Both the position numbers and the translations under genes were made by a program. From a virus, in UHGV virus genome UHGV-0198133: a stretch of DNA of 21,885 bases; one strand, written 5' to 3'. Shown piece by piece: positions 71 through 21,724 of the stretch (its first letter is position 1; every line of letters starts with the position of its first letter). Below the pieces are notes generated by a model that saw only the letters and a program-made list of their open reading frames with translations, was not told where the DNA came from and searched no databases.

Positions 71-96
71 TTAGCCAGGTAACACAGTGTTATGAC

Positions 97-124
97 AGCC
101 CGCCGGTTCAGGCGGGCTTTTTTG
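97..124 (+). terminator. Rho-independent terminator after lom
   Basis: GC stem agcccgcc / ggcgggct with loop ggttca, followed by a T-run (ttttttgtg). Confidence 0.5.
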
Positions 125-134
125 TGGGGGGAAT

Positions 135-2666
135 ATGGCAGCAGTAAAAATCTCAGGCGTGCTGAAAGACGGTGCAGGAAAACCGGTACAGAACTGCACC
201 ATTCAGCTCAAAGCAAAACGTAACAGCACCACGGTTGTGGTGAACACGGTGGCCTCTGAAAATCCGGATGAAGCCGGGCGTTACAGTATGGACGTTGAGT
301 ACGGTCAGTACAGCGTTATTCTGTTGGTGGAGGGATTCCCGCCGTCACATGCCGGGACCATCACCGTGTATGAAGATTCTCAACCCGGTACGCTGAATGA
401 TTTTCTCGGTGCCATGACGGAGGATGATGCCCGTCCGGAGGCACTGCGCCGTTTTGAGCTGATGGTGGAAGAGGTGGCGCGTAACGCGTCCGCAGTGGCA
501 CAGAACACGGCAGCCGCGAAGAAGTCAGCCGGCGATGCCAGCACATCAGCCCGTGAGGCGGCAACCCATGCGACTGATGCTGCAGACTCAGCACGCGCAG
601 CCAGCACGTCAGCCGGACAGGCCGTGTCGTCGGCTCAGTCAGCGTCTTCCAGCGCAGGAACGGCATCAGCAAAAGCCTCTGAGGCATCGAAAAGTGCTGC
701 TGCTGCAGAGTCCTCAAAAAGCGCGGCGGCCACCAGTGCCGGTGCAGCGAAAACGTCAGAAACGAATGCGGCAGCCAGCGTTACCGCCGCTGAAAAATCG
801 GCAGAAAGCGCTGCATCGTCCGCTTCAACAGCCACAACGAAGGCTGGCGAAGTCACTGAACAGGCCACTGCAGCTGCGAGGTCTGCTTCCGCAGCGAAGA
901 CATCTGAGACGAATGCGAAAGCGTCGGAAACCCGTGCCGAATCCTCAAAAACGGCAGCCGCATCGTCCGCCAGTTCGGCGGCGTCATCGGCATCATCTGC
1001 GTCTGCTTCAAAAGATGAGGCGACTAAACAGGCGTCAGCAGCGAAAGGCAGCGCCACGACGGCATCCACGAAGGCGACAGAGGCAGCTGGCAGTGCGACG
1101 GCAGCAGCTCAGAGCAAAAGTGCGGCAGAATCCGCAGCAACGCGCGCCGGGACGGCAGCAAAACGGGCAGAGGATATTGCATCCGCTGTGGCGCTTGAGG
1201 ATGCGAGTACGACGAAAAAGGGGATAGTACAACTCAGTAGTGATACCAACAGCACGTCTGAAACACTGGCCGCGACATCGAAAGCGGTTAAGGCGGTAAT
1301 GGATGAAACAAACAAGAAAGCCCCATTAAACAGCCCGACACTGACCGGAACACCAACGACGCCAACTGCGCGACAGGGAACTAATAATACCCAAATCGCA
1401 AGCACGGCTTTCGTTATGGCTGCGATTGCCGCCCTTGTAGATTCGTCACCTGACGCACTGAATACGCTGAACGAGTTAGCGGCGGCGCTGGGAAACGACC
1501 CGAATTTTGCGACCACCATGACTAACGCGCTTGCGGGTAAGCAACCGAAAGATGCCACCCTGACGGCGCTGGCCGGGCTTGCTACTGCGGCAGACAAGTT
1601 TCCGTATTTTACGGGGAATGATGTCGCCAGCCTGGCAACCCTGACAAAAGTCGGGCGGGATATTCTTGCGAAATCGACCGTTGCCGCTGTTATCGAATAC
1701 CTCGGTTTACAGGAAACGGTAAATCAGGCTTCTGGTGCGTTGCAGAAAAACCAGAACGGCGCGGATATTCCAGGAAAAGATACCTTCACCAAAAATATTG
1801 GTGCCTGCCGCGCATATAGCGCATGGCTGAATATTGGTGGCGATAGTCAGGCCTGGACAACCGCACAATTCATTTCGTGGCTGGAGAGTCAGGGAGCATT
1901 TAACCATCCTTACTGGATGTGCAAAGGCTCATGGGCTTATGCAAATAATAAGGTCATTACAGATACAGGTTGCGGAAATATTTGTCTTGCAGGTGCTGTG
2001 GTGGAAGTTACTGGCACTCGCGGCGCAATGACCATACGCGTTACCACGCCGAGTACGTCCAGCGGCGGCGGAATCACTAACGCTCAATTCACTTATATTA
2101 ATCATGGTGATGCTTACGCTCCTGGCTGGCGACGAGACTACAACACGAAAAACCAGCAGCCTGCATTTGCTTTAGGGCAAACAGGAAGCACTGTCGGAAA
2201 TGATAAAGCTGTTGGCTGGAACTGGAATAGCGGGGTCTATAACGCAAATATTGGTGGCGCATCGACATTAATCCTCCACTTCAATATGAATACGGGGAGC
2301 TGCCCTGCTGTACAGTTCCGCGTGAATTACAGGAACGGCGGTATTTTTTATCGTTCAGCGCGTGATGGTTATGGATTTGAGGCTGACTGGTCAGAGTTTT
2401 ACACCACAACCCGCAAACCTTCTGCGGGAGATGTTGGTGCATATACGCGGGCAGAATGTAACTCAAGGTTTATTACAGGTATTCGCCTTGGCGGTCTGTT
2501 ATCTGTTAAGACATGGCATGGTTCCGGCTGGTCTGACAGGTCAGGTTATGTCGTTACGGGTTCAGTTAACGAAAACCGTGATGAATTAATTGATACAATT
2601 CAGGCAAGGCCAATTCAGTATTGCATTAATGGGGTGTGGTATAACGCGGGGAGTATTGAACGATGA
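135..2666 (+). CDS. stf: Side tail fibre protein (lambda Stf-like N-terminus, P2 gpH-like distal region)
   Basis: 843-aa ORF. N-terminus [27 protein letters not shown] matches my recollection of lambda/Rac Stf. A long Ala/Ser/Thr-rich low-complexity segment follows, then motifs shared with P2 gpH ([62 protein letters not shown]). Confidence 0.85.
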
Positions 2667-3205
2667 TGCACTTAAAAAACATTACTGCTGGCAACCCTAA
2701 AACAAAAGAGCAATACCAGCTAACGAAACAATTTAACATCAAATGGCTTTATACAGAGGATGGGAAAAACTGGTATGAGGAACAAAAGAACTTTCAGCCT
2801 GATACGTTGAAAATGGTCTATGACCACAACGGCGTTATTATTTGTATTGAAAAGGATGTTTCAGCAATTAATCCGGAAGGCGCAAGCGTCGTTGAATTAC
2901 CTGATATTACAGCAAATCGCCGGGCTGATATTTCGGGTAAATGGATGTTTAAGGATGGCGTGGTAATTAACCGGGAATGCACTTATGAAGAACTGGTGCA
3001 GCAGGCAAAAAATAAAAAGAGCTTATTAATGCGACAGGCCGATGATTGCATGGCACCCCTTCGGGATGCTGTGGATTTGGATATGGCGACAGAGGGGGAA
3101 AAGGAACAGTTACTGACCTGGAAGAAATATCGGGTGTTACTAAACCGTGTTGATACATCGACCGCGCCGGATATCGAATGGCCGGAAGAACCAGACACAA
3201 TGTAA
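2663..3205 (+). CDS. tfa: Tail fibre assembly chaperone (P2 gpG / Tfa family)
   Basis: 180-aa ORF whose ATG overlaps the stf stop (ATGA). N-terminus [25 protein letters not shown] and internal [14 protein letters not shown] resemble P2 gpG/Tfa as recalled. Confidence 0.85.
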
Positions 3206-3399: not shown

Positions 3400-3566
3400 T
3401 CTGAATGACACCTGAAAATTTCCCGTCCGTTAAGTGTCCATCCCGAGAGAAGTGGGGAACCATAACACCCTGTCGGGACGCAGAAAGAAACAACACAACT
3501 TGCAGGGATATTTCTCGATACTACGTCAATGGGGGGTGTTAAATTATTACACTTAGTTACAAATAG

Positions 3567-6684: not shown

Positions 6685-6927
6685 ATGAGCACTGATATTT
6701 CAATTCGTGTACCAAAAGAGATGGCTACGCCTGCAGAGTTCGCGGAATGGGAAGGTATCTCCCGCGGCTCCGTGTATCAAAAAATTCACCATGGTCAGCT
6801 TGCTAAATACATGGTCAAGAAAGAAAAAAACAAAGGCCGCGTAAGCCTGCGTTATTTAATGTACAAAACCGATCAGGTCCGTGAATCCCTCGGTCATTCC
6901 AACTTCCGCGTCATTGTTGGTAAGTAA
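6685..6927 (+). CDS. Apl/Cox-like excisionase and switch regulator
   Basis: 80-aa ORF, first gene of the rightward operon opposite cI, with an SD-like gggaga upstream. Assignment is by size and position only. Confidence 0.5.
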   Translation: MSTDISIRVPKEMATPAEFAEWEGISRGSVYQKIHHGQLAKYMVKKEKNKGRVSLRYLMYKTDQVRESLGHSNFRVIVGK

Positions 6928-8760: not shown

Positions 8761-9614
8761 GCACCATCCTGAAATGGGCGGGTAATAAAACTGCCATTAT
8801 GTCCGAACTGAAAAAATACCTTCCTGCTGGCCCGCGACTGGTTGAACCTTTCGCGGGTTCCTGTGCAGTGATGATGGAGACGGATTACCCCAGCTATCTG
8901 GTTGCGGATATTAATCCTGATTTAATCAACCTCTATAAAAAGGTTGCTGCTGATTGTGAATCGTTTATATCTCGCGCCAGAGTTTTATTTGAGATCGCAA
9001 ACAGGGAGGTGGCTTATTACAACATAAGGCAGGAGTTTAATTACTCAACTGAAATTACTGATTTCATGAAAGCGGTATATTTCCTGTATCTCAATCGTCA
9101 CGGTTACCGTGGTTTATGTCGCTATAACAAGAGCGGGCATTTCAACATTCCCTACGGTAATTATAAAAATCCGTATTTCCCTGAAAAAGAAATTCGCGCA
9201 TTTGCAGAAAAAGCCCAGCGAGCAACGTTTATCTGCGCCAGCTTTGATGAAACGCTGGCGATGTTGAAGGCAGGGGATGTGGTGTATTGCGATCCGCCGT
9301 ATGACGGTACGTTTTCCGGCTATCACACTGATGGTTTCACTGAAGATGACCAGTATCACCTGGCATCCGTTCTTGAACATCGGTCATCAGAAGGACATCC
9401 GGTCATTGTTTCTAACAGTGACACATCCCTGATCCGTTCGCTGTATCGCAATTTTACTCACCACTATATCAAGGTAAAACGCAGCATCGGTGTGGCAGCT
9501 GGCGAGGGTAAATCAGCAACAGAAATCATTGCTGTTTCCGGGCCGCGCTGCTGGGTGGGATTTGATTATTCGCGTGGCCTGGATAGTTCTGCCGTGTACG
9601 GAGTACGTGCATGA
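8758..9614 (+). CDS. dam: DNA adenine (N6) methyltransferase, Dam-like
   Basis: ILKWAGNK near the N-terminus, FAGS (motif I) and DPPY (motif IV), the order characteristic of Dam-type MTases. True start is ATG 8758 with GGAGG upstream; the longer track ORF from 8697 overlaps the TraR-like gene. Confidence 0.8.
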
Positions 9615-12025
9615 GCCATGCCGATATGAACAACTGCTGCGGCTTTAACGAGGCTGCCGCAGCGTTCTCATGGAACAGCCCGAAAAAGGCCATTAACCCT
9701 TATCTGGACCCGGCGGAAGTTGCGCCGGTTTCTGCGCTTTCAAACCTGATCGCTCTGTACGCTGCCGATAACGAGCAGGAACACCTGCGCCGCGAGGCAC
9801 TGAGTGATCAGGTCTGGGAGCGTTATTTCTTTAATGAATCCCGTGATCCTGTCCAGCGCGAAATGGAGCAGGATAAGCTCATTAGTCGGGCAAAGCTGGC
9901 GCATGAGCAGCAGCGTTTTAATCCAGATATGGTCATTCTGGCGGACGTCAATGCCCAGCCTTCCCATATCAGCAAGCCGCTGATGCAACGTATTGAATAC
10001 TTCAGCAGCTTGGGCAGGCCAAAGGCTTATTCCCGCTATTTGCGTGAGACGATTAAGCCATGTTTGGAGCGACTGGAGCATGTACGCGACAGCCAGCTAT
10101 CTGCATCTTTTCGTTTTATGGCAAGCCATGTAGGGCTGGACGACCTGCTGATTCTGCCTGAAATGAGTCAGGATCAGGTGAAACGCCTGTCTACTCTTGT
10201 CGCTGCGCATATGAGCATGTGTCTTGATGCCGCTTGTGGTGATTTGTACGCCACCGATGATGTTAAGCCAGAAGAAATCCGCAAGACATGGGAAAAGGTG
10301 GCAGCAGAAACCCTGCGACTGGATGTTATCCCGCCTGCGTTTGAGCAACTTCGTCGGAAAAGAAACCGCCGTAAACCCGTGCCCTATGAACTCATTCCGG
10401 GTTCGCTGGCGCGTATGTTGTGCGCCGATTGGTGGTACCGGAAATTATGGAAGATGCGTTGCGAATGGCGGGAAGAGCAGTTGCGTGCTGTTTGCCTGGT
10501 CAGCAAAAAAGCATCTCCCTATGTCAGCTATGAAGCCGTGATGCATAAACGTGAGCAGCGCCGTAAGTCGCTGGAGTTTTTCCGTTCTCATGAACTGGTG
10601 AACGAAGACGGCGACACGCTGGACATGGAGGATGTGGTAAACGCCAGCAGCAGCAACCCGGCGCATCGCCGCAATGAGATGATGGCCTGTGTTAAAGGTC
10701 TGGAGCTTATCGCAGAAATGCGCAGTGACTGTGCCGTTTTCTACACTATCACCTGTCCGTCGCGTTTCCATTCCACGCTCAATAACGGCAGACCAAACCC
10801 GACCTGGACAAACGCGACGGTAAGACAAAGCAGCGATTATCTGGTCGGCATGTTTGCTGCATTTCGTAAGGCTATGCACAAAGCCGGGTTGCGCTGGTAT
10901 GGCGTGCGGGTGGCTGAACCGCATCATGACGGCACAGTTCACTGGCACCTGTTGTGTTTCATGCGCAAAAAAGACCGCCGCGCCATTACTGCATTGTTGC
11001 GTAAGTTTGCCATCCGTGAAGACCGCGAGGAGCTGGGCAATAACACGGGGCTACGCTTTAAGTCTGAGCTGATAAACCCGCGCAAAGGTACGCCAACAAG
11101 CTACATCGCGAAATACATCAGTAAGAACATTGACGGGCGTGGTCTGGCTGGCGAGATCAGCAAGGAAACGGGTAAATCCCTGCGTGATAACGCTGAATAC
11201 GTTAATGCCTGGGCGTCTCTGCATCGTGTTCAGCAATTCCGCTTCTTTGGCATTCCGGGGCGTCAGGCTTACCGTGAACTGCGATTGCTGGCTGGTCAGG
11301 CGGCAAGGCAACAGGGGGACAAAAAAGCAGGTGCGCCGGTACTGGATAACCCGCGCCTTGATGCAATCCTGGCTGCTGCTGATGCTGGTTGTTTTGCCAC
11401 CTACATCATGAAGCAGGGCGGCGTACTGGTTCCCCGCAAATATCACCTCATCAGAACTGCTTATGAAATCAACGAAGAGCCGACCGCCTATGGCGATCAC
11501 GGTATTCGTATTTATGGCATCTGGTCACCCATTGCAGAGGGCAAGATCTGCACTCATGCGGTGAAGTGGAAAATGGTTCGTAAGGCCGTTGACGTTCAGG
11601 AGGCGGCAGCCGACCAGGGCGCTTGCGCCCCTTGGACTCGTGGCAATAACTGTCCCCTTGCTGAAAATTTGAACCAACAGGAGAAAGATAAATCAGCTGA
11701 TGGGGACCCCAGAACGGACATTACCCGCATGGATGACAAGGTGTTGCACGATTACCTGCACAGTATGAACAAAAAGGAGCGCCGGGAATTGGCTGCAAGG
11801 TTACGTCTGGTGAAACCGAAACGGCGTAGAGACTACAAACAGCGAATTACAGACCATCAACGACAGCAGCTCGTCTATGAACTGAAATCCAGAGGATTTG
11901 ATGGCAGCGAGAAAGAGGTCGATTTACTCCTTCGCGGCGGCAGTATTCCGTCAGGAGCAGGCCTGCGTATCTTCTATCGGAACCAGCGTTTGCAGGAAGA
12001 TGATAAGTGGCGGAACCTGTATTAA
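9611..12025 (+). CDS. A: Rolling-circle replication initiator (P2 gpA / 186 RepA family)
   Basis: 804-aa ORF coupled to dam (ATGA overlap). Contains an HUH-like motif ([13 protein letters not shown]) and a twin-tyrosine motif YIAKYISKN resembling phiX174 gpA YVAKYVNK. Confidence 0.85.
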
Positions 12026-12095
12026 TTACGCTGGTTAACAATTCGTGCTCTTAATAATATCAGGCATATCAGGCTGATAAGCGTAAAAAAAACGT

Positions 12096-12138
12096 TTTAC
12101 ATCAGTAAGATTATTATATACTGTAAATATAAACAGTG
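12096..12138 (+). promoter_or_regulatory. Candidate SOS-regulated promoter with LexA box
   Basis: taCTGTaaatataaACAGtg at 12119-12138 fits the LexA box CTGT-N8-ACAG with an AT-rich spacer. Upstream TTTACA (12096-12101) and a 17-nt spacer place the -10 over the box. Confidence 0.5.
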
Positions 12139-12179
12139 GTTATACATACAGTATTGCGTGTGGTGTCATAGGAGGAAAG

Positions 12180-12368
12180 ATGCAGGACTATTTTTTGGAG
12201 TCTTTGAAGCTCCAGCGCATTGATTTTTTTCTTAAGCTTGTAGCGGCTAGTGAGTGCGATGATGAAGAGAAGCGGCTTGCTATCCAGTGGGTTTCGGAGC
12301 TGACCGATGAGTTAATGGCGAAAATCCGTACTCATGAGTACAACCGTTCAATGGATCTCCCCGGTTAG
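12180..12368 (+). CDS. Small SOS-controlled protein, Tum-like antirepressor candidate
   Basis: 62-aa ORF with AGGAGG immediately upstream, downstream of the LexA box, in the position after repA where 186 carries LexA-repressed tum. No sequence-level confirmation. Confidence 0.45.
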   Translation: MQDYFLESLKLQRIDFFLKLVAASECDDEEKRLAIQWVSELTDELMAKIRTHEYNRSMDLPG

Positions 12369-12952
12369 GCTTAGAAACGTTGCTGGCGTTAGGACTTGAT
12401 TCTGACGCTAGCAAGGTTGATCAACGAGCCATGCGAGGCGTTAGTCATGGGAAAAAAATAGTAACTTCCAGATTTTGCTTCGTGCCAGGTATTGAGTAGT
12501 TTTATCGCCAGAGGGGCTGTTAGCGCTCAAACTACTAATGGAGCCACACCTTAGATGAGTGATTTGGCTTAAGCTATGATTATATAGTTTCGCTGTACGG
12601 CGGCCTTGCTTTTTATTGAAGCGACCAGACTGGAACAACGGCGAAAGGAGACTAACGATACGCACCAGTTTTTTGAAAAGGTACAGTTATCTAGATTGGT
12701 TGCCAATTTTCGTTGAAACCTGACATACCATTAGGTCATTGCTTTAGAAAAATTAATACTTGATGTGAGAATTGCTTCAAAACATCTAGAATTAAAGTTT
12801 CTTTACTAGTATGCTTCATCACTTGGTCGTTGGGTTGAGTGCAAAAGCTAAGGCTGATGCCCAGTACGCTATCCGCATTATTGCCAGAGAACCGATTCGA
12901 AACCGGAATCTGGCAGAGCATGGGCGCAAGTGCTGGCTTCCCAACGGCCTCG

Positions 12953-13921
12953 TTATTTATAATATGCTGACTTCAAAACCACTCGTCTTTCAACCTGCTG
13001 TGATAGCATTACCGCGTTAGTCCAATCTTTTGGATACCTTATTTCTTCTATAACACGAATATAAGCACATACTTTATTTTTTCCCTCTCCTTTGGCATAA
13101 GTAACCTCTAGATTATTAAATTTCAATAAGTGCTCTCTTCTTTGGTAAGTAAAACAGCCGTAATCACGGACATCAGAAGAAGTAATAGCATGAGTTGAAG
13201 GAAACCGAACTAGTAAATTTCTCAAGTAGGGAATAATGTCCAAACTCGTTGCTTTGTTTTCTTCTCTGCGACTCTTTCTGAACATATGTCTCCAACCCAG
13301 CCGTGTAAGCTCGATTTTCCCAAGCACCGGAGATGTGATTTCTTTCTGTTCAGAATAACGTTTTTTAACAAACGCTCGCCGATTATTAAGTAGTGAGTTT
13401 CTTCTTCTTACATGGATTCCTTTTGCTCCAGTTTCACCTGCACGTACCATGGACATACAGCGAGCCAGGTCAAACCGTGTGGCCGGAGTGATTAAGTGAT
13501 ATTCTCCATAAGTTTGGTTTTTAAGGGTAGTGTTTGGATGTATATAGGCCCAAAATGCTTTACGATTAGTTCTGTCAACCCAAACGACACATATATGGTG
13601 AGTTGTCCTTTTGGCTGCTTTTTTTGCGGCCGAATTTAATACAAAACCTTTCTCTAATAAATGACCATAAGTTGCCCCTGATTTAACTTGCGATAATATA
13701 AGCATTCTTTCTTTTGATGCCCATGGATGTTCGAAGGATAATATTAAATCTATTTTTGAATTGTCGTCTTCCCTGGAACCCCAGTGCCCCTCTCCTCTAC
13801 AAGCAAGAATGAATTGACTCATTGCATAAGATTCGGCGTCACTGCCGTTAACTGAGTTAAACTGTCTTGTTTCTAGCACAGTTGGTATTGGTCGTGATGC
13901 AAGTAAACTGAAAGATCCCAC
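12953..13921 (-). CDS. Hypothetical AT-rich orphan protein in the repA-cos cargo slot (possible nuclease-like N-terminal domain)
   Basis: 322-aa ORF with GTG start at 13921 preceded by GGAGA (alternative ATG at 13822). N-terminal region has a pattern compatible with a PD-(D/E)xK-like core (E...KIDLILSF...MLILSQVKSG). Flanked by ~580 bp and ~600 bp of non-coding DNA. Confidence 0.5.
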   Translation of the reverse strand: MGSFSLLASRPIPTVLETRQFNSVNGSDAESYAMSQFILACRGEGHWGSREDDNSKIDLILSFEHPWASKERMLILSQVKSGATYGHLLEKGFVLNSAAKKAAKRTTHHICVVWVDRTNRKAFWAYIHPNTTLKNQTYGEYHLITPATRFDLARCMSMVRAGETGAKGIHVRRRNSLLNNRRAFVKKRYSEQKEITSPVLGKIELTRLGWRHMFRKSRREENKATSLDIIPYLRNLLVRFPSTHAITSSDVRDYGCFTYQRREHLLKFNNLEVTYAKGEGKNKVCAYIRVIEEIRYPKDWTNAVMLSQQVERRVVLKSAYYK

Positions 13922-14358
13922 TTATAGTTCTCTCCAAAAAATTGCATAATCTTGAACGCTAAAAAATAGTATACAAACTAAAGTATTTTTTCATTTAATT
14001 CAATGTATTGGCTAAAATTAAGACATTTATAGCTATATGTACTAGATAACATAGCGTTGTTTTCCTTTTGAAATCTCTTCTTGTGGTAACACAACAGTAT
14101 TTACTCAAGTAGTTTGTCACTGCATGGGGAGATTTTGCTATGTCCGCGGCATCATACAGATGCGATAGATTTTCAGCATGACCTTGGGTAGCAAATCTGT
14201 AGGTATCATCCATTGCACCTCAAAGTAACTCTGGTGCATACCTATGCTGCATGAAAATGAATGATCGCTAGTGGATCGTTTAAGTCGAAGCCTGCCAGTT
14301 CTGACGAGCTTTTGCTTATGTTATGCAACTGCATGAAAACCACTACACAAAGCGGGCA

Positions 14359-14377
14359 GGCGTGGCGGGGATACGAG
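14359..14377. other. Candidate cos site
   Basis: GGCGTGGCGGGGA at 14359-14371 matches the first 13 nt of the 19-nt cohesive end I recall for phage 186 (GGCGTGGCGGGGAAAGCAT); the remaining bases diverge. Lies between repA-side and portal-side genes as expected. Confidence 0.4.
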
Positions 14378-14529
14378 CGCGCGCTAAGTCATATAAGAGT
14401 TATATATTGATTTGATTGCTGGACATGCATACAGTATCGCTCTATCATCTAATAAATCTTAGAGTATTTGGCAATGTTTGGATAAAATGGAACCTAACTT
14501 ATTCATAATCCGCTAAACAGGGATGTCAG

Positions 14530-15444
14530 ATGCCATACCAATTGGTAGAGCTTAGCCCCGTAGCTAACGATCTTGAACAGTTAGGAACCAAAGAGAAGTT
14601 TTGGTTCTATTTCTCCGATGACACTGTAAATTTGCAGTTGTTTAAGTACTCTAGGCCAGGTACTGGCGAGCATTGGTCTGAAAAGTGTGCTGCTGAGTTA
14701 TGTCATTTGCTTAACATTCCACATGCTAGCTATGATTTGGCGCGATACAATGGTCGATTCGGTGTGGTGACTCAGAATATCATTCCATCTGGTTTCCGGA
14801 TGGTAATGGGAAATGAAGTGCTTCACAGTTCGACATTCGATTATCCTGGGCCTTTACAAGCCGGGGAAAAGCCGGTAAGGGTCAGAGAACACACTGTCAC
14901 AAGGGTATTGGGTTGTTTGGATAGGGAATCTATCAAGCCTCCTCCGAGTGTATATGATCTAACCGGGCTAAATGCAGCAGATGTATTTTGTGGATATTTG
15001 ATGCTCGATGCACTTGTGAGTAATCAAGATCGCCATCATGAAAATTGGGCGATCATGCTTAACAATGAAACTGGTGAGCAGTTTTTGTGTCCAACATACG
15101 ATCATGCCGCTAGTTTAGGAAGGGAGATGTTAGATGATGAGCGTAACGAACGGCTTAATACTAAAGATAAAAATCGACAAATCCCATGTTTTGTAAGAAA
15201 AGCTCGCTCTGAGCTATTCAAAGCAAAAACTGATAAAAAGCCCTTGCTGACCGTTGAAGCATTTCAACATGCAGTTGAAGGGAGAGTTGCCGCTCGCGAC
15301 CATTGGTTAGGTAAGTTGAGCGTTTTAACAGAAGATTCCATTACAGATGTGTTTAACCAAGTGCCTTCATCGTGTATATCCGACAGTGCACGTAGATTTG
15401 CAACGTTAATGGTAATGGAAAATCGCAGAAGGTTACTAGAATGA
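14530..15444 (+). CDS. HipA-like Ser/Thr protein kinase, compact core only
   Basis: 304-aa ORF. Gly-rich loop LGTKEKFWF (compare HipA GAQEKT), catalytic-loop-like LVSNQDRHHENWA (compare HipA D-x-H-x-K-N) and Mg-binding-like PTYDHAAS 24 residues later (HipA D309 to D332 is 23). No HipA N-terminal subdomain. Confidence 0.6.
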   Translation: MPYQLVELSPVANDLEQLGTKEKFWFYFSDDTVNLQLFKYSRPGTGEHWSEKCAAELCHLLNIPHASYDLARYNGRFGVVTQNIIPSGFRMVMGNEVLHSSTFDYPGPLQAGEKPVRVREHTVTRVLGCLDRESIKPPPSVYDLTGLNAADVFCGYLMLDALVSNQDRHHENWAIMLNNETGEQFLCPTYDHAASLGREMLDDERNERLNTKDKNRQIPCFVRKARSELFKAKTDKKPLLTVEAFQHAVEGRVAARDHWLGKLSVLTEDSITDVFNQVPSSCISDSARRFATLMVMENRRRLLE

Positions 15445-16181
15445 CTAATACAAACTCCGTTTACGTCGCATGGCAGGCACCAGATACCAGAGACTGGCAT
15501 GTTGTTGGTAACTTGCAAGAGCGCAAATCGGGGTATGTTTTCAGGTATACCAAAGGTGCTCTTAAATCTACTAAATTTACAAAGTTTAGCGGCATGAGTG
15601 ATGTTCGTGAAACTTATGTTTCGGAAGAATTGTTTCCTCTTTTTAAAAATCGCCTTTTATCACCGAGACGTCCAGAGTATCCGAGTTTCATTAAATGGCT
15701 TGGATTTGAAGAAGATAAGGTAAATCCTATCGATATTCTTGCTCGCTCGGGAGGCTTACGAAGCACTGATCAGCTGCAGATTTTCAAAAAAATTGATGTT
15801 GATTCTGATGGTAACTTTGAGCATTTTTTCTTCTTACATGGACTTGGTTACTTAAATAGCTTAGCTAATGCTCGTGTATCTGAATTGAAACCGGGGCAAA
15901 TTTTGCGTCTTTGCTTGGATCTTCAAAATGAATACGATGGGGATGCTGTTGTCGTTCGTGCAGATAAACCAGCTGAAATCGTTGGTTACTGCCCTAGGTA
16001 TTTAAGTAATGATATCAAGAAGATGTTATTGGATGATCCAAAATCAATCACTTTAACGGTCGAAAAGATTAGCGATGATGCTCCTCATAACTATCGGTTA
16101 TTATGTAAATTATCAGGAGTACTAAGCCAAGCCTGTCAATCGACGCTGATTCCTCAGGATGAGTTTGAACCTATTGAGTAA
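15441..16181 (+). CDS. HIRAN-like domain protein with unknown N-terminal domain, coupled to the kinase
   Basis: 246-aa ORF whose ATG overlaps the kinase stop (ATGA). C-terminal half (FFLHGLGYL...LQNEYDGDAVVVRADKPAEIVGYCPRYLSNDIKKML) follows the HIRAN pattern seen in HLTF (VVGLRYY...NPYDKNAIKV...VGHLKKELA). Confidence 0.5.
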   Translation: MTNTNSVYVAWQAPDTRDWHVVGNLQERKSGYVFRYTKGALKSTKFTKFSGMSDVRETYVSEELFPLFKNRLLSPRRPEYPSFIKWLGFEEDKVNPIDILARSGGLRSTDQLQIFKKIDVDSDGNFEHFFFLHGLGYLNSLANARVSELKPGQILRLCLDLQNEYDGDAVVVRADKPAEIVGYCPRYLSNDIKKMLLDDPKSITLTVEKISDDAPHNYRLLCKLSGVLSQACQSTLIPQDEFEPIE

Positions 16182-16186
16182 ATGAA

Positions 16187-16212
16187 GAAAAGCCACCAAA
16201 CGGTGGCTTTTC
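16187..16212. terminator. Bidirectional intrinsic terminator between the kinase/HIRAN operon and portal gene Q
   Basis: aaagccacc / ggtggcttt stem with loop aaac, flanked by an A-run upstream and T-run downstream; serves convergent transcripts. Confidence 0.55.
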
Positions 16213-16215
16213 TTA

Positions 16216-17256
16216 TTATGGGACTATATCTAGCGAGTAGGTATTAAACTGTATCGCCTCCTTGCCAAGCCAATCATTCATCTCCTGTAATCGCTTTTGT
16301 AGTGGCATTAGCTCATTTCGGACGAATACACGGCTTGCCTTTTCCACATCCCCAAACCCCCCAACATTATTCGGCATAATCCCCATCATTTGCGGCGGCA
16401 CGCGGTGCGCTGCCATCATGTCATCCCGACTCACGTTCTTGATGTTAAGAAATTCATCCTTCGCCGCGACTTCTGACAATGGGATGATCTGAAGCCCGTC
16501 TTTTTTGCCGTTAGGTGAGTACATAAACAGGTTGCGGAAGTTGCCTGGACCTTTGGCGCTTTTCATCGCGTTGCGGAGGTTGTTCACATCCTCCTGATTC
16601 TGCGCGGCATCGGTCATGTACATGATGAAGCCTGCATGGCTGCCGTTAATGTAATACTTACGGCGGAACAACGTGGCGGACTCGTTGAGCAGGGCTGACG
16701 GAATGGCAGAAAGATAACCGGGCAGGCCGTAGATCTCCTGGTTGATATCCGGTTCCATCAGATGAAAGATGCTGCCTTTCGTGAACTGATACGGCTGCGT
16801 AGTCATGCCGTATTGCACAAACCAGTAGGTATCCAGGTCTAACCCGCGTCGGGTGTATTTTGCCAGAGCAGGCTCAAGGGCGATAACTTCACCGAAGCGG
16901 TTCGTGCGTTTCTCCAGGTAGGCGTTACCAAATACCAGATAGTCCTGCACAAAACGTGAAAAAGCCTGCTGGCTGAGCAGCGGGTGGGGGATGTAGGTAC
17001 TGGTCAGAATGTTGCATTTCACCGCAATTGGTGAACTGTGATGCACGGCGGCGCGGAAGGTGCGCGCCAGTCCGTCAAAGCTTACTGGCGGCTCATACCA
17101 GCGATCTGTCTGTACGCATTCCACATAGTCCAGTAGTTCGCGGCGGTCCAGAACAGGAACGGGATCACCGAAGCTGAATGCTTCGGCTGTAGTTTGACTT
17201 TTATGCTGGATCTGGTTCGTCGACGCAGCGCGGTTCTTCTTACTCTTTCCCATCAA
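16216..17256 (-). CDS. Q: Capsid portal protein (P2 gpQ family)
   Basis: 346-aa ORF (P2 gpQ is about 344 aa), leftward, immediately upstream of and overlapping the terminase gene as in P2. Confidence 0.8.
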   Translation of the reverse strand: MMGKSKKNRAASTNQIQHKSQTTAEAFSFGDPVPVLDRRELLDYVECVQTDRWYEPPVSFDGLARTFRAAVHHSSPIAVKCNILTSTYIPHPLLSQQAFSRFVQDYLVFGNAYLEKRTNRFGEVIALEPALAKYTRRGLDLDTYWFVQYGMTTQPYQFTKGSIFHLMEPDINQEIYGLPGYLSAIPSALLNESATLFRRKYYINGSHAGFIMYMTDAAQNQEDVNNLRNAMKSAKGPGNFRNLFMYSPNGKKDGLQIIPLSEVAAKDEFLNIKNVSRDDMMAAHRVPPQMMGIMPNNVGGFGDVEKASRVFVRNELMPLQKRLQEMNDWLGKEAIQFNTYSLDIVP

Positions 17257-19019
17257 AAAATCTCCACAATATTACTGGTATTGGCGGACTCGCCCTGCAG
17301 TGGTTCGTTAAACAGTGCGTGCATTGTTGCCCAGGCCAGATCGGCGTGGCTGGCTTCTTCGCTGCGGCTGGCTTCATAGGTTGGGCGGTTGCCACTGGCG
17401 GTGGTTGCGCGACGGATTGCCATGAATGACTGCGCAATGTCGGTGTGCCCGGCGTCAAACTCCAGACGGCGGTGGCTGATAATGTCGTAGGCCTTGAGTA
17501 CCAGGGCGTTTTTAACGTTGGGGTTGTAGACAAACTCCCGGACGGCAGGAAAGAACGCTTTCACGTTCTCGTAAACCCCGTGACCAACGCCGGTTGAGTC
17601 GATACCGATATAAGTCACGTTGTACTGTTCGGTAAGTTTTTTGATGGCGTCAGCCTGGGCGCGGAAGTCCATCCCGCGCCACTGGTGACGCTCAAGAATG
17701 CGGAACTTACCACCCGGCACGGCTGGCGGTGCCACCACCACGCATCCAGCGCTGTCGCCGTTTTGCGTACCTTTTGCCGGGTCATAACCGATCCACACTT
17801 CGCGCCAGCCAAACGGGCGCAGCGCCAGTGCATGAAAGTCGGTCCAGACTTCCCAACTGTCCACCATGCACGCCTGCAGCTCGCTGAGCGGAAACACGGA
17901 CGCGAGATCGTCCACAAACTCGCACATCAGCAGGTTCTGGTATTCGTCTGGGCTGTACTCCATGCGTAGCTGGTCGAGGTCGAACAGGTTACAGCCGCCG
18001 CGCACCGCATCTTCCACGGTGACTATCTGGCGGTATTGCCCGTCTGCGCACAGCAGGCCGGGGGCCAGATTGCTGTGGGACAGGTCGATGTCCACCTTAT
18101 CGGCTTTGTTGCGCCCACGGTTGAACAGCGCACCGGACCAGAACGGATAAGCACTGTGTGTCAGACTGGATGGCGTGGAAAAATAGGTTTGTCGCCATTT
18201 TTTGTGAATAGCCATACCGGAAGCCACTTTGCGCAGCTCCTGGAATTTCGGTATCCAGAAATATTCATCCAGATACAGGTTGCCGTGGTAACTCTGGGCC
18301 GTGCGGGCATTGGTGCCGAGGAAGTAAAGCGTGGCCCCGTTAGGAAGCACCATCGGATCGCCTTTCAGCTCCACCTCCACTTCTTTGGCAAAGTCGATGA
18401 TGTACTGTTTAAAGACGTGGGCCTGAGCCTTGCTGGCAGAAAGGAAAATCTGGTTACGCCCGGTCAGCAGGGCGTCAATCAGGGCTTCACGGGCAAAGTA
18501 AAAGGTCGCGCCGATCTGGCGTGACTTCAGCAGGTTGCGGATGCGGTTGGTTTTTCCGGCTTCCCACCAGTGGCGCTGGTAGTTGAACATAGAGGAATGG
18601 AAGATTTCTTCCAGTTTCTCAATCTGTTCATCGGTGAAAACATTCTTTTCCGGCTGACGACGTGGGCCTTTGTTGCGGTTGGCAACGTTAGGGTTTAAGT
18701 CGGCTTCGTTGCCGCCATTGTTAAACTTGCCGATCCGCACGTGGCGCTCAGACTGGCGTGCCAGCAGGTCAATTTCTTTGAAATCTTTCCCTTCTTTGTG
18801 CTCCTTCATAATGAGCTGGCAGTAGCGTGCGGCGGTGGTGAGCTGCATCTGATCCAGCGGCCCATAGTCACCCCACTTGTCGCGTTTTTTCCAGCTGTGA
18901 ACGGTTGCAACTTTCTCGCCCAGCATTTCAGCAATGCGGGCGACGCGGTATCCCTGAAAGTACAGCAGCATGGCCTGCCGACGGGGATCGAGATCTGCGG
19001 GTGTCAGTGTGGTGTTCAT
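17253..19019 (-). CDS. P: Terminase large (ATPase) subunit (P2 gpP family)
   Basis: 588-aa ORF divergent from O-N-M, with start overlapping the Q stop. Size and position match P2 gpP. Confidence 0.8.
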   Translation of the reverse strand: MNTTLTPADLDPRRQAMLLYFQGYRVARIAEMLGEKVATVHSWKKRDKWGDYGPLDQMQLTTAARYCQLIMKEHKEGKDFKEIDLLARQSERHVRIGKFNNGGNEADLNPNVANRNKGPRRQPEKNVFTDEQIEKLEEIFHSSMFNYQRHWWEAGKTNRIRNLLKSRQIGATFYFAREALIDALLTGRNQIFLSASKAQAHVFKQYIIDFAKEVEVELKGDPMVLPNGATLYFLGTNARTAQSYHGNLYLDEYFWIPKFQELRKVASGMAIHKKWRQTYFSTPSSLTHSAYPFWSGALFNRGRNKADKVDIDLSHSNLAPGLLCADGQYRQIVTVEDAVRGGCNLFDLDQLRMEYSPDEYQNLLMCEFVDDLASVFPLSELQACMVDSWEVWTDFHALALRPFGWREVWIGYDPAKGTQNGDSAGCVVVAPPAVPGGKFRILERHQWRGMDFRAQADAIKKLTEQYNVTYIGIDSTGVGHGVYENVKAFFPAVREFVYNPNVKNALVLKAYDIISHRRLEFDAGHTDIAQSFMAIRRATTASGNRPTYEASRSEEASHADLAWATMHALFNEPLQGESANTSNIVEIF

Positions 19020-21073: not shown

Positions 21074-21724
21074 ATGAGCCTGAGTCCCGCACGGCAGCAT
21101 CGCCTGCGCGTTCAGGCTGAACAGGCCGCCCGTGAGGGCGGCAGCGTTCGCCACGCGTCGGGCTATGACCTGATGCTGCTGCAACTGGCGGAAGACCGCC
21201 GCCGTCTCAAGGGCGTTCAGTCCACGGTCAAAAAAGCGGAGATTAAGGTGGAACTGCTGCCGAAGTACGCCGCCTGGGCAGAGGGTGTCCTGACTGCCGG
21301 AGGCGCACAGCAGGATGACGTGCTGATGTACGTGATGCTGTGGCGCATTGATGCCGGAGATTATGCCGGGGCGCTGGAGATCGGGCGTCACGCCCTGCGT
21401 CATGGCTGGGTGATGCCGTTAGGTAACCGCAACGTGCAGACCGTGCTGGCAGAGGAAATGGCAGATGCAGCCCAGAGCGCAATGCTTGCCGCCACCGGCT
21501 TTGATGCCGATCTGTTGCTGCAGACCCTGGAGCTGACAGACGGTATGGATATGCCGGACCAGTCACGGGCGCGTCTGCATAAAGCGATTGGCGCTGTCCT
21601 GAGTGAAAGCAACCCGGCTTCCGCCCTTAATCATCTCAACCATGCGTTACAGCTCGATCCCCGCTGTGGCGTGAAAAAAGACAAACAGCAGCTGGAGCGC
21701 AGACTGCGCAATGACAGCCGCTGA
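21074..21724 (+). CDS. M: Terminase small subunit (P2 gpM family)
   Basis: 216-aa ORF immediately after N in the head operon; assignment by position and size. Confidence 0.65.
   Translation: MSLSPARQHRLRVQAEQAAREGGSVRHASGYDLMLLQLAEDRRRLKGVQSTVKKAEIKVELLPKYAAWAEGVLTAGGAQQDDVLMYVMLWRIDAGDYAGALEIGRHALRHGWVMPLGNRNVQTVLAEEMADAAQSAMLAATGFDADLLLQTLELTDGMDMPDQSRARLHKAIGAVLSESNPASALNHLNHALQLDPRCGVKKDKQQLERRLRNDSR

Follow-up and report, generated by a model that had tools for sequence, protein, structure and literature searches.

The sequence that includes the 19-mer at positions 14359–14377 of the window is, with a probability that we put at roughly 85%, a cos site in its Fels-2-type allele, separating two cargo slots of a seemingly complete E. 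coli prophage of the P2 family (Peduoviridae, 186/Fels-2-like). The window is the whole stretch of DNA that was analysed, 21,885 nucleotides of the virus genome UHGV-0198133. A sequence-only reading of this DNA had proposed a cos site on the strength of a short match to phage 186; homology, location between gpA and gpQ, and conservation agree with that proposal, and from them the virion ends are predicted. The feature is already known in kind and is ordinary phage anatomy. The only increment of the present analysis is the quantitative demonstration that two independently reassorting sites are joined at the cohesive end.

The cohesive-end sequence

The 13-mer GGCGTGGCGGGGA, which corresponds to bases 1–13 of the annotated cohesive end (cos) of 186, occurs once in the window, at 14359–14371 on the plus strand, whereas about 6.5e-4 exact 13-mer matches would be expected in 2 x 21885 positions by our own arithmetic. 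Base-for-base alignment with the annotated P2, 186 and PSP3 ends leads to the following predictions:

14359–14377, plus strand: predicted 19-nt 5′ cohesive end (cosN overhang), GGCGTGGCGGGGATACGAG
14358/14359 on the top strand and 14377/14378 on the bottom strand: predicted nicks, by analogy with P2, 186 and P4

This GC-rich 19-nt end is homologous to the GGCG(A/T)GGCGGGGA... ends of P2-family phages. With the end of 186 and PSP3 (GGCGTGGCGGGGAAAGCAT) it shares the first 13 nt and 15 of 19 bases overall, the four mismatches lying at positions 14, 16, 17 and 19, and the full 186 19-mer is absent from the window at up to three mismatches; with the overhang of P2 and P4 (GGCGAGGCGGGGAAAGCAC) it is identical at 14 of 19 positions. 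GGCGTGGCGGGGATACGAG is 19/19 identical to Fels-2 at the aligned position (the Fels-2 record has no cos annotation) and 19/19 identical to a stretch inside the annotated 'putative cos site' of Escherichia phage Cartapus. It is also exactly the cos published for Salmonella phage SEN8 (PMC5427200), in agreement with the SEN8 record, the SEN8 and Cartapus sites being annotations by homology. Since SEN8 has been plaque-purified (PMC5427200), a viable phage carries GGCGTGGCGGGGATACGAG. A direct end-mapping of the Fels-2-type (ATACGAG) allele was not found in the searchable literature. The last third of the overhang varies in other P2-family members too, such as Smp131 (GGCGTGGCGGGGAGACGAG; PMC3931495) and SEN4/SEN5 (ggcgaggcgggggaacgag; PMC5261728). 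Judged from these alignments, the mismatch with 186 after base 13 is a different allele and not decay. The exact and unique 13-nt match to 186 that had been reported earlier therefore stands, its supposed breakdown after 13 nt being allelic variation of the Fels-2 type, and the suspicion that the 186 sequence used for it was imperfect was unfounded, that sequence being correct.

Anatomy of the cos module

For the comparison with known cos regions, the circular junctions of P2, 186, PSP3 and P4 were rebuilt and aligned with Fels-2 and the window, the cohesive ends being annotated in the P2, 186 and PSP3 records and the P4 record carrying no cos feature. An alignment to the cos regions of 186, P2, PSP3 and Fels-2 had been suggested as a check of the sequence-only reading, and the window does align with them base for base. 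The elements recognized, all on the plus strand, are:

14236–14384: full conserved cos module, 149 bp, delimited by column conservation among 73 distinct alleles
14237–14263: distal block, made up of three motifs of the TGCAT type: GTGCAT, CTGCATGA and a third one, mutated here to GAATGA
14290–14308: degenerate palindromic element, family consensus CCCGCCAGaaCTGGCGGG, from the alignment and the allele consensus
14330–14384: 55-bp cos core, TGCATGAAAACC...AAAGCGGGCA followed by the 19-mer and CGCGCGC, from core identity to P2-family cos

The concept of a 55-bp core goes back to Ziermann and Calendar (1990), as cited in PMC5694545, PMC3931495 and PMC2231350, and such a conserved core surrounds the cohesive end here. 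It is identical to that of 186 at 43/55 positions, to P2 at 41/55, and to P4 and PSP3 at 44/55 each, the cores of P2, P4, 186 and PSP3 being 47–54/55 identical among themselves; the identity to the annotated 'putative cos site' of Cartapus is 98%. Just outside the two nicks lie the hexamers GCGGGC and GCGCGC, which, as read from the sequence, are two-fold symmetric, as would be expected for symmetric nicking.

The similarity extends far beyond the core. In BLAST searches, region 14226–14392 matched 91 phage records, with E-values down to 9e-40 to P2-family phages, and among the 73 distinct alleles, which come from close relatives, conservation drops abruptly outside 14236 and 14384, the flanks being unrelated. 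The module is strongly asymmetric: 123 bp precede the top-strand nick, whereas past the overhang it extends for just 7 bp (CGCGCGC), and the interval 14340–14400 to which the site had originally been assigned takes in only its proximal third. That the 13 nt agree with 186 by coincidence, in a GC-rich stretch, is scarcely credible. Matches to the 13-mer with two or fewer mismatches did turn up in 29 of 100 shuffles, but the window holds one exact match only, which is part of a 149-bp module matching P2-family phages with the E-values given above and sits exactly at the cos position of the family; the similarity of the whole module and the P2-family cos alignment refute the idea.

The distal TGCAT block lies ~100–125 nt to the left of the cut and is found at the same distance in P2, 186, PSP3, Fels-2 and P4. 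Its CTGCATGAAAA sequence forms a direct repeat (D1), the second copy of which is located 82 nt downstream at 14329–14339. Because the satellite P4 has the block and is described as having essentially nothing but cos in common with P2 (PMC9122126), the packaging signal probably includes it. The palindromic element of the window departs from the CCCGCCAGaaCTGGCGGG consensus at 14304 and 14307.

Another reading would be that the module serves mainly in transcription control (promoter or terminator) of the flanking cargo and is cos-like in its core only. A weak hairpin resembling a terminator lies at 14355–14340 on the minus strand, and the old-tin transcript of P2 starts ~150 nt to the left of cos, so that its promoter would overlap the distal block. 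However, 186, PSP3, Fels-2 and P4 conserve the distal block to the same degree despite different neighbour genes and orientations, the promoter scan gave no promoter-like site inside the module, and no Rfam family was found in 13700–14700 at E <= 1. We regard a mainly transcriptional role as very improbable.

For a cos site, the mechanism can be proposed by analogy with P2, 186 and P4. Terminase (gpM and gpP) would recognize the 149-bp module 14236–14384 and introduce the two nicks 19 nt apart, between 14358 and 14359 on the top strand and between 14377 and 14378 on the bottom strand, thereby producing a linear genome with 5′ overhangs GGCGTGGCGGGGATACGAG. Nearly all of the conserved recognition sequence, made up of the TGCAT-type repeats, the palindromic element and the GCGGGC flank, is to the left of the cut and would therefore form part of the right end of the mature DNA; past the overhang, the symmetric GCGCGC nick flank is all that is conserved. 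The cut would therefore divide the gpA–gpQ accessory region into two slots situated at opposite ends of the packaged genome.

Prophage context and conservation of the site

Positions 12000–17300 of the window are 100% identical to two complete E. coli chromosomes. In E. coli 442/2 (NZ_CP076282), the surrounding 33 kb make up an apparently complete P2-family prophage with a full P2-type gene set, in the order integrase, 186-type CI, CII, Fil, gpA, accessory genes, portal, terminase, capsid, lysis and tail. The anchor and terminase genes in the window are:

9611–12025, plus strand: replication endonuclease (gpA homologue), left anchor of the left slot; Pfam Phage_GPA, 3e-126
16216–17256, minus strand: portal (gpQ homologue), bounding the right slot on its right; annotated in RefSeq for the identical region
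17253–19019, minus strand: terminase large subunit (gpP homologue); Terminase_6N, Terminase_6C and Terminase_5
21074–21724, plus strand: terminase small subunit (gpM homologue); Phage_term_smal, 3.5e-40

The predicted cos is thus located between gpA and portal Q, with the terminase P and M genes intact and adjacent. Having cos between gpA and gpQ is the textbook arrangement of P2, and the left slot is the classical tin/old region.

Conservation was examined in 80 IMG/VR loci whose portal protein is 93–100% identical to that of the window. The module was found in 76 of them, each with one best match, between gpA and gpQ, the other four loci being cut off shortly after the portal gene. In 72 of the 76 loci the 19-mer is unchanged, and in the remaining four it differs only at base 19. 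Among complete E. coli genomes, 1262 of 5426 carry the full-length module, and the 26-mer consisting of overhang plus flank is present in at least 120 IMG/VR contigs. A single copy in the window and a single best match per locus, conserved while the flanks vary, are what is expected of a P2-family cos. Loci L026, L054, L075 and L082 have a hybrid end, ...ATACGAT followed by TGCGCGC, in which overhang position 19 and the base after it are as in 186, the two bases changing together. One contig, L153 (IMGVR_UViG_3300011853_000021), harbors two inverted copies of the 26-nt overhang-plus-flank sequence ~3.2 kb apart, at 3440–3465 on the minus strand and 6704–6729 on the plus strand.

Cargo of the two slots

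The contents of the two slots in the window are as follows:

12026–14235: left cargo slot, predicted to form the right end of the mature genome, its contents falling into 22 clusters across 71 loci
12180–12368, plus strand: conserved 62-aa ORF of the left slot
12953–13921, minus strand: 322-aa orphan gene in the variable DNA that follows in the left slot, called shorter (290 aa) in RefSeq
13995–14213, minus strand: 72-aa ORF between the 322-aa gene and the cos module, unannotated in RefSeq in the identical region
14385–16215, plus strand: right cargo slot, predicted to form the left end of the mature genome, its contents falling into 49 clusters across 76 loci
14420–14448: promoter-like site, from the promoter scan
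14530–15444: HipA-like kinase gene
15441–16181: HIRAN gene; with the kinase gene it matches PADLOC PDC-M03A (2e-122) and PDC-M03B (3e-93), and Pfam gives HIRAN and a weak HipA_C match for the two
16188–16211: bidirectional terminator hairpin, AAAAGCCACC-AAAC-GGTGGCTTTT, read from the sequence

The predicted cut would place the 322-aa gene at the right end of the chromosome and leave 171 nt between the left end and the start of the kinase/HIRAN operon, in line with the earlier expectation that the two cargo loci sit at opposite ends. The region between the 322-aa gene and the kinase operon had been described as a long intergenic one; it also holds the 72-aa ORF. No Pfam, PADLOC or PHROG family was found for the 322-aa and 72-aa products. 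The kinase-like and HIRAN proteins belong to PHROG families of unknown function, phrog_8728 and phrog_8026. The hairpin at 16188–16211 lies between the stop codon of the HIRAN gene and that of the portal gene and also ends the portal operon, a placement like that of the tQ terminator of P2. The right slot is a self-contained cassette of promoter, two overlapping genes and terminator, encoding the candidate defence pair PDC-M03. Both slots have a GC content of 33–44%, compared with 50–56% for the backbone, and with its variable, low-GC genes and PDC-M03 in the right slot the region has the character of the P2 gpA–gpQ accessory (tin/old, 'TO') hotspot.

Independent reassortment at the cohesive end

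The two slots vary separately. The distance from gpA to the module ranges from 655 to 4960 bp, with 22 sequence clusters in 71 loci, and that from the module to the portal gene from 161 to 3502 bp, with 49 clusters in 76 loci; a right slot that is empty, as in P2 and 186, was seen in only 2 of the 76. Left and right contents form 64 combinations in the 71 loci, and the mutual information between them is barely above that of permuted data (p = 0.07), despite the presence of related genomes in the sample. The claim that the cos-like sequence splits the cargo into two independent slots is thereby borne out, the 22 and 49 content types combining nearly at random and meeting in the cohesive end. 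The kinase/HIRAN cargo itself occurs with three different left cargos among the IMG/VR loci, and a fourth left cargo, SIR2 plus an ATPase, accompanies the same pair in E. coli 89-3156. The possibility that 89-3156 shares the module allele of the window was ruled out by alignment, as this genome carries the common allele and shares only the core and the right slot.

The position of the junction can be read from pairs of loci. Between the window and L010, the 1875 nt of right-slot DNA beyond the module are free of mismatches, whereas the module itself contains 28, none of them to the right of 14348. In the 26 locus pairs with the same right and different left contents, the last mismatch falls at −4 to −39 from the nick, and in the 89 pairs with the same left and different right contents the first mismatch falls at +19 to +30, the pair counts being inflated by relatedness since IMG/VR loci are not independent samples. 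Because mismatches reach as far as −4 on one side and begin at +19 on the other, the two reassorting halves meet between −4 and +19, within the cohesive end, and the left cargo takes the 123-bp recognition region along with it.

As for how such a pattern arises, the slots may reassort as the two ends of a linear chromosome, in which case one crossover anywhere in the 95–99% identical backbone would, together with cos cutting, suffice to bring them into new combinations. The same pattern would follow if homologous exchange were limited to the ~22-bp invariant stretch. We therefore advance only tentatively, and at somewhat under even odds, the view that the 'single' gpA–gpQ hotspot consists of two cassette sites at the ends of the virion chromosome, shuffled through cos cutting acting as the second crossover. 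If it is true, defence repertoires would arise by reassortment of ends rather than by insertion at a hotspot, with the left cargo always accompanied by the 123-bp recognition region.

Comparison with known systems

The closest counterparts are the cos sites of Fels-2-type Peduoviridae (Fels-2, SopEPhi, RE-2010, SEN8 and Cartapus), which have the identical 19-mer, a core that is 93–98% identical, and the same position; these phages likewise carry one or two cargo genes between cos and portal. They differ from the window in their cargo on both sides, and the distal module of the window is only ~80–85% identical to theirs, with private substitutions. In 186 and PSP3 the TGCAT repeats and the GCGCGC nick flank are as in the window and the core is shared at 43–44 of 55 positions, whereas the portal gene begins 195–197 nt past cos and the right slot is empty. 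P2 and P4 show the same architecture, including the distal TGCAT triplet, but P2 has old and tin in the left slot only, with just a terminator between cos and Q. With lambda cos (cosQ-cosN-cosB) the site has in common the staggered terminase nicks, a partly symmetric cleavage site and an asymmetric flanking recognition region; there is, however, no sequence similarity, the lambda overhang is 12 nt instead of the 19 nt of P2-type phages, and the extended conserved region is here on the side that becomes the right chromosome end, unlike in lambda. The reported preference of P2-type packaging for circular monomers as substrate (PMC2231350) is another difference from lambda.

The gpA–gpQ region has been described as a defence hotspot by Rousset 2022 (PMC9122126), Vassallo 2022 (PMC9519451) and a study in NAR 2026 (PMC13586616), all treating it as one hotspot 'adjacent to cos', and PMC5694545, citing Dodd and Egan 1996 and Nakayama 1999, calls the segment from cosL to Q a hotspot for foreign genes and describes cargo on either side of cos. 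The window represents the same locus, its cargo including the PADLOC candidate PDC-M03. In contrast to gene-based hotspot surveys, cos is seen here to separate two reassorting slots, of which the one between cos and portal is the more diverse in this lineage; gene-based surveys of P2-like prophages merge these two separately exchangeable cassette sites. The split has a bearing on attempts to group adjacent genes into a single defence system: here the PDC-M03 kinase/HIRAN pair stands alone as a unit and has nothing to do with the orphan gene across cos. Correct placement of cos also tells annotators where the packaged genome starts and ends.

Divergence of this copy

The module of the window deviates from the 80% consensus at 15 positions, compared with a median of 3, and nearly all of the deviations are in its distal part. 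At 14260, in the third GCATG motif, 97% of alleles have a C, which is kept in P2, 186, P4, PSP3 and Fels-2, whereas the window has an A; 14304 is a G-to-A change in the palindromic element, and 14272 also falls at a near-invariant position. The substitutions at positions that are 95–97% invariant among the 73 alleles comprise 14260, 14272 and 14304 and also 14240, 14270, 14286 and 14322. The allele is rare, being found at 95% identity or more in 8 of 1707 E. coli records, and it is linked to the orphan left cargo, as in L012. Co-evolution with terminase was considered as the cause of the divergent distal module and rejected, as gpM is 97–100% and gpP 99–100% identical across related loci.

The question is whether the site could be a true cos homologue that has become a weakened or dead copy, in an immobile prophage or with damaged distal recognition motifs. 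The excess of deviations, including the C-to-A change in the third GCATG motif and the G-to-A change in the palindromic element, would fit with this, as would the rarity of the allele in E. coli and the unchanged terminase, which leaves no compensating change. The lack of a Tum/DinI antirepressor homologue in the window points the same way. On the other side, the 55-bp core is off consensus at a single position, 14348, with a variant common to five other loci, the 19-mer and both nick flanks are intact, the gene set of the 442/2 prophage looks complete, the same allele recurs in several E. coli genomes and in L012, and L024 and L054 deviate as much or more. A weakened copy thus appears unlikely, though clearly less so than a chance match or a transcriptional element, and a working cos of the Fels-2 type remains our preferred reading. 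Either the deviating positions tolerate change or the cos of the window is sub-optimal.

A search of the whole window gave no DinI/Tum-like antirepressor gene. In 186, PSP3, Fels-2 and E. coli 89-3156, a Tum/DinI gene comes right after the conserved 62-aa ORF, and the similarity of the window to 89-3156 stops at ~12359. Because the window has no Tum/DinI homologue, SOS induction of the prophage may fail.

Several features at the periphery were also observed. The first ~3.8 kb of the window are outside the P2-like prophage; they include, at 135–3205, an 843-aa protein with a 'Prophage tail fibre N-terminal' domain of the lambdoid type, after whose gene comes a 180-aa ORF, and this DNA differs from the flank of the 442/2 prophage, which contains an RM system and IS3 copies. 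The 442/2 prophage has an invertase adjoining duplicated tail-fibre assembly genes. Outside the window, at 32609–33595 of the same locus (L009, E. coli 442/2), a further cargo gene, encoding a DUF6602 protein, lies between the tail-completion gene and baseplate gene V.
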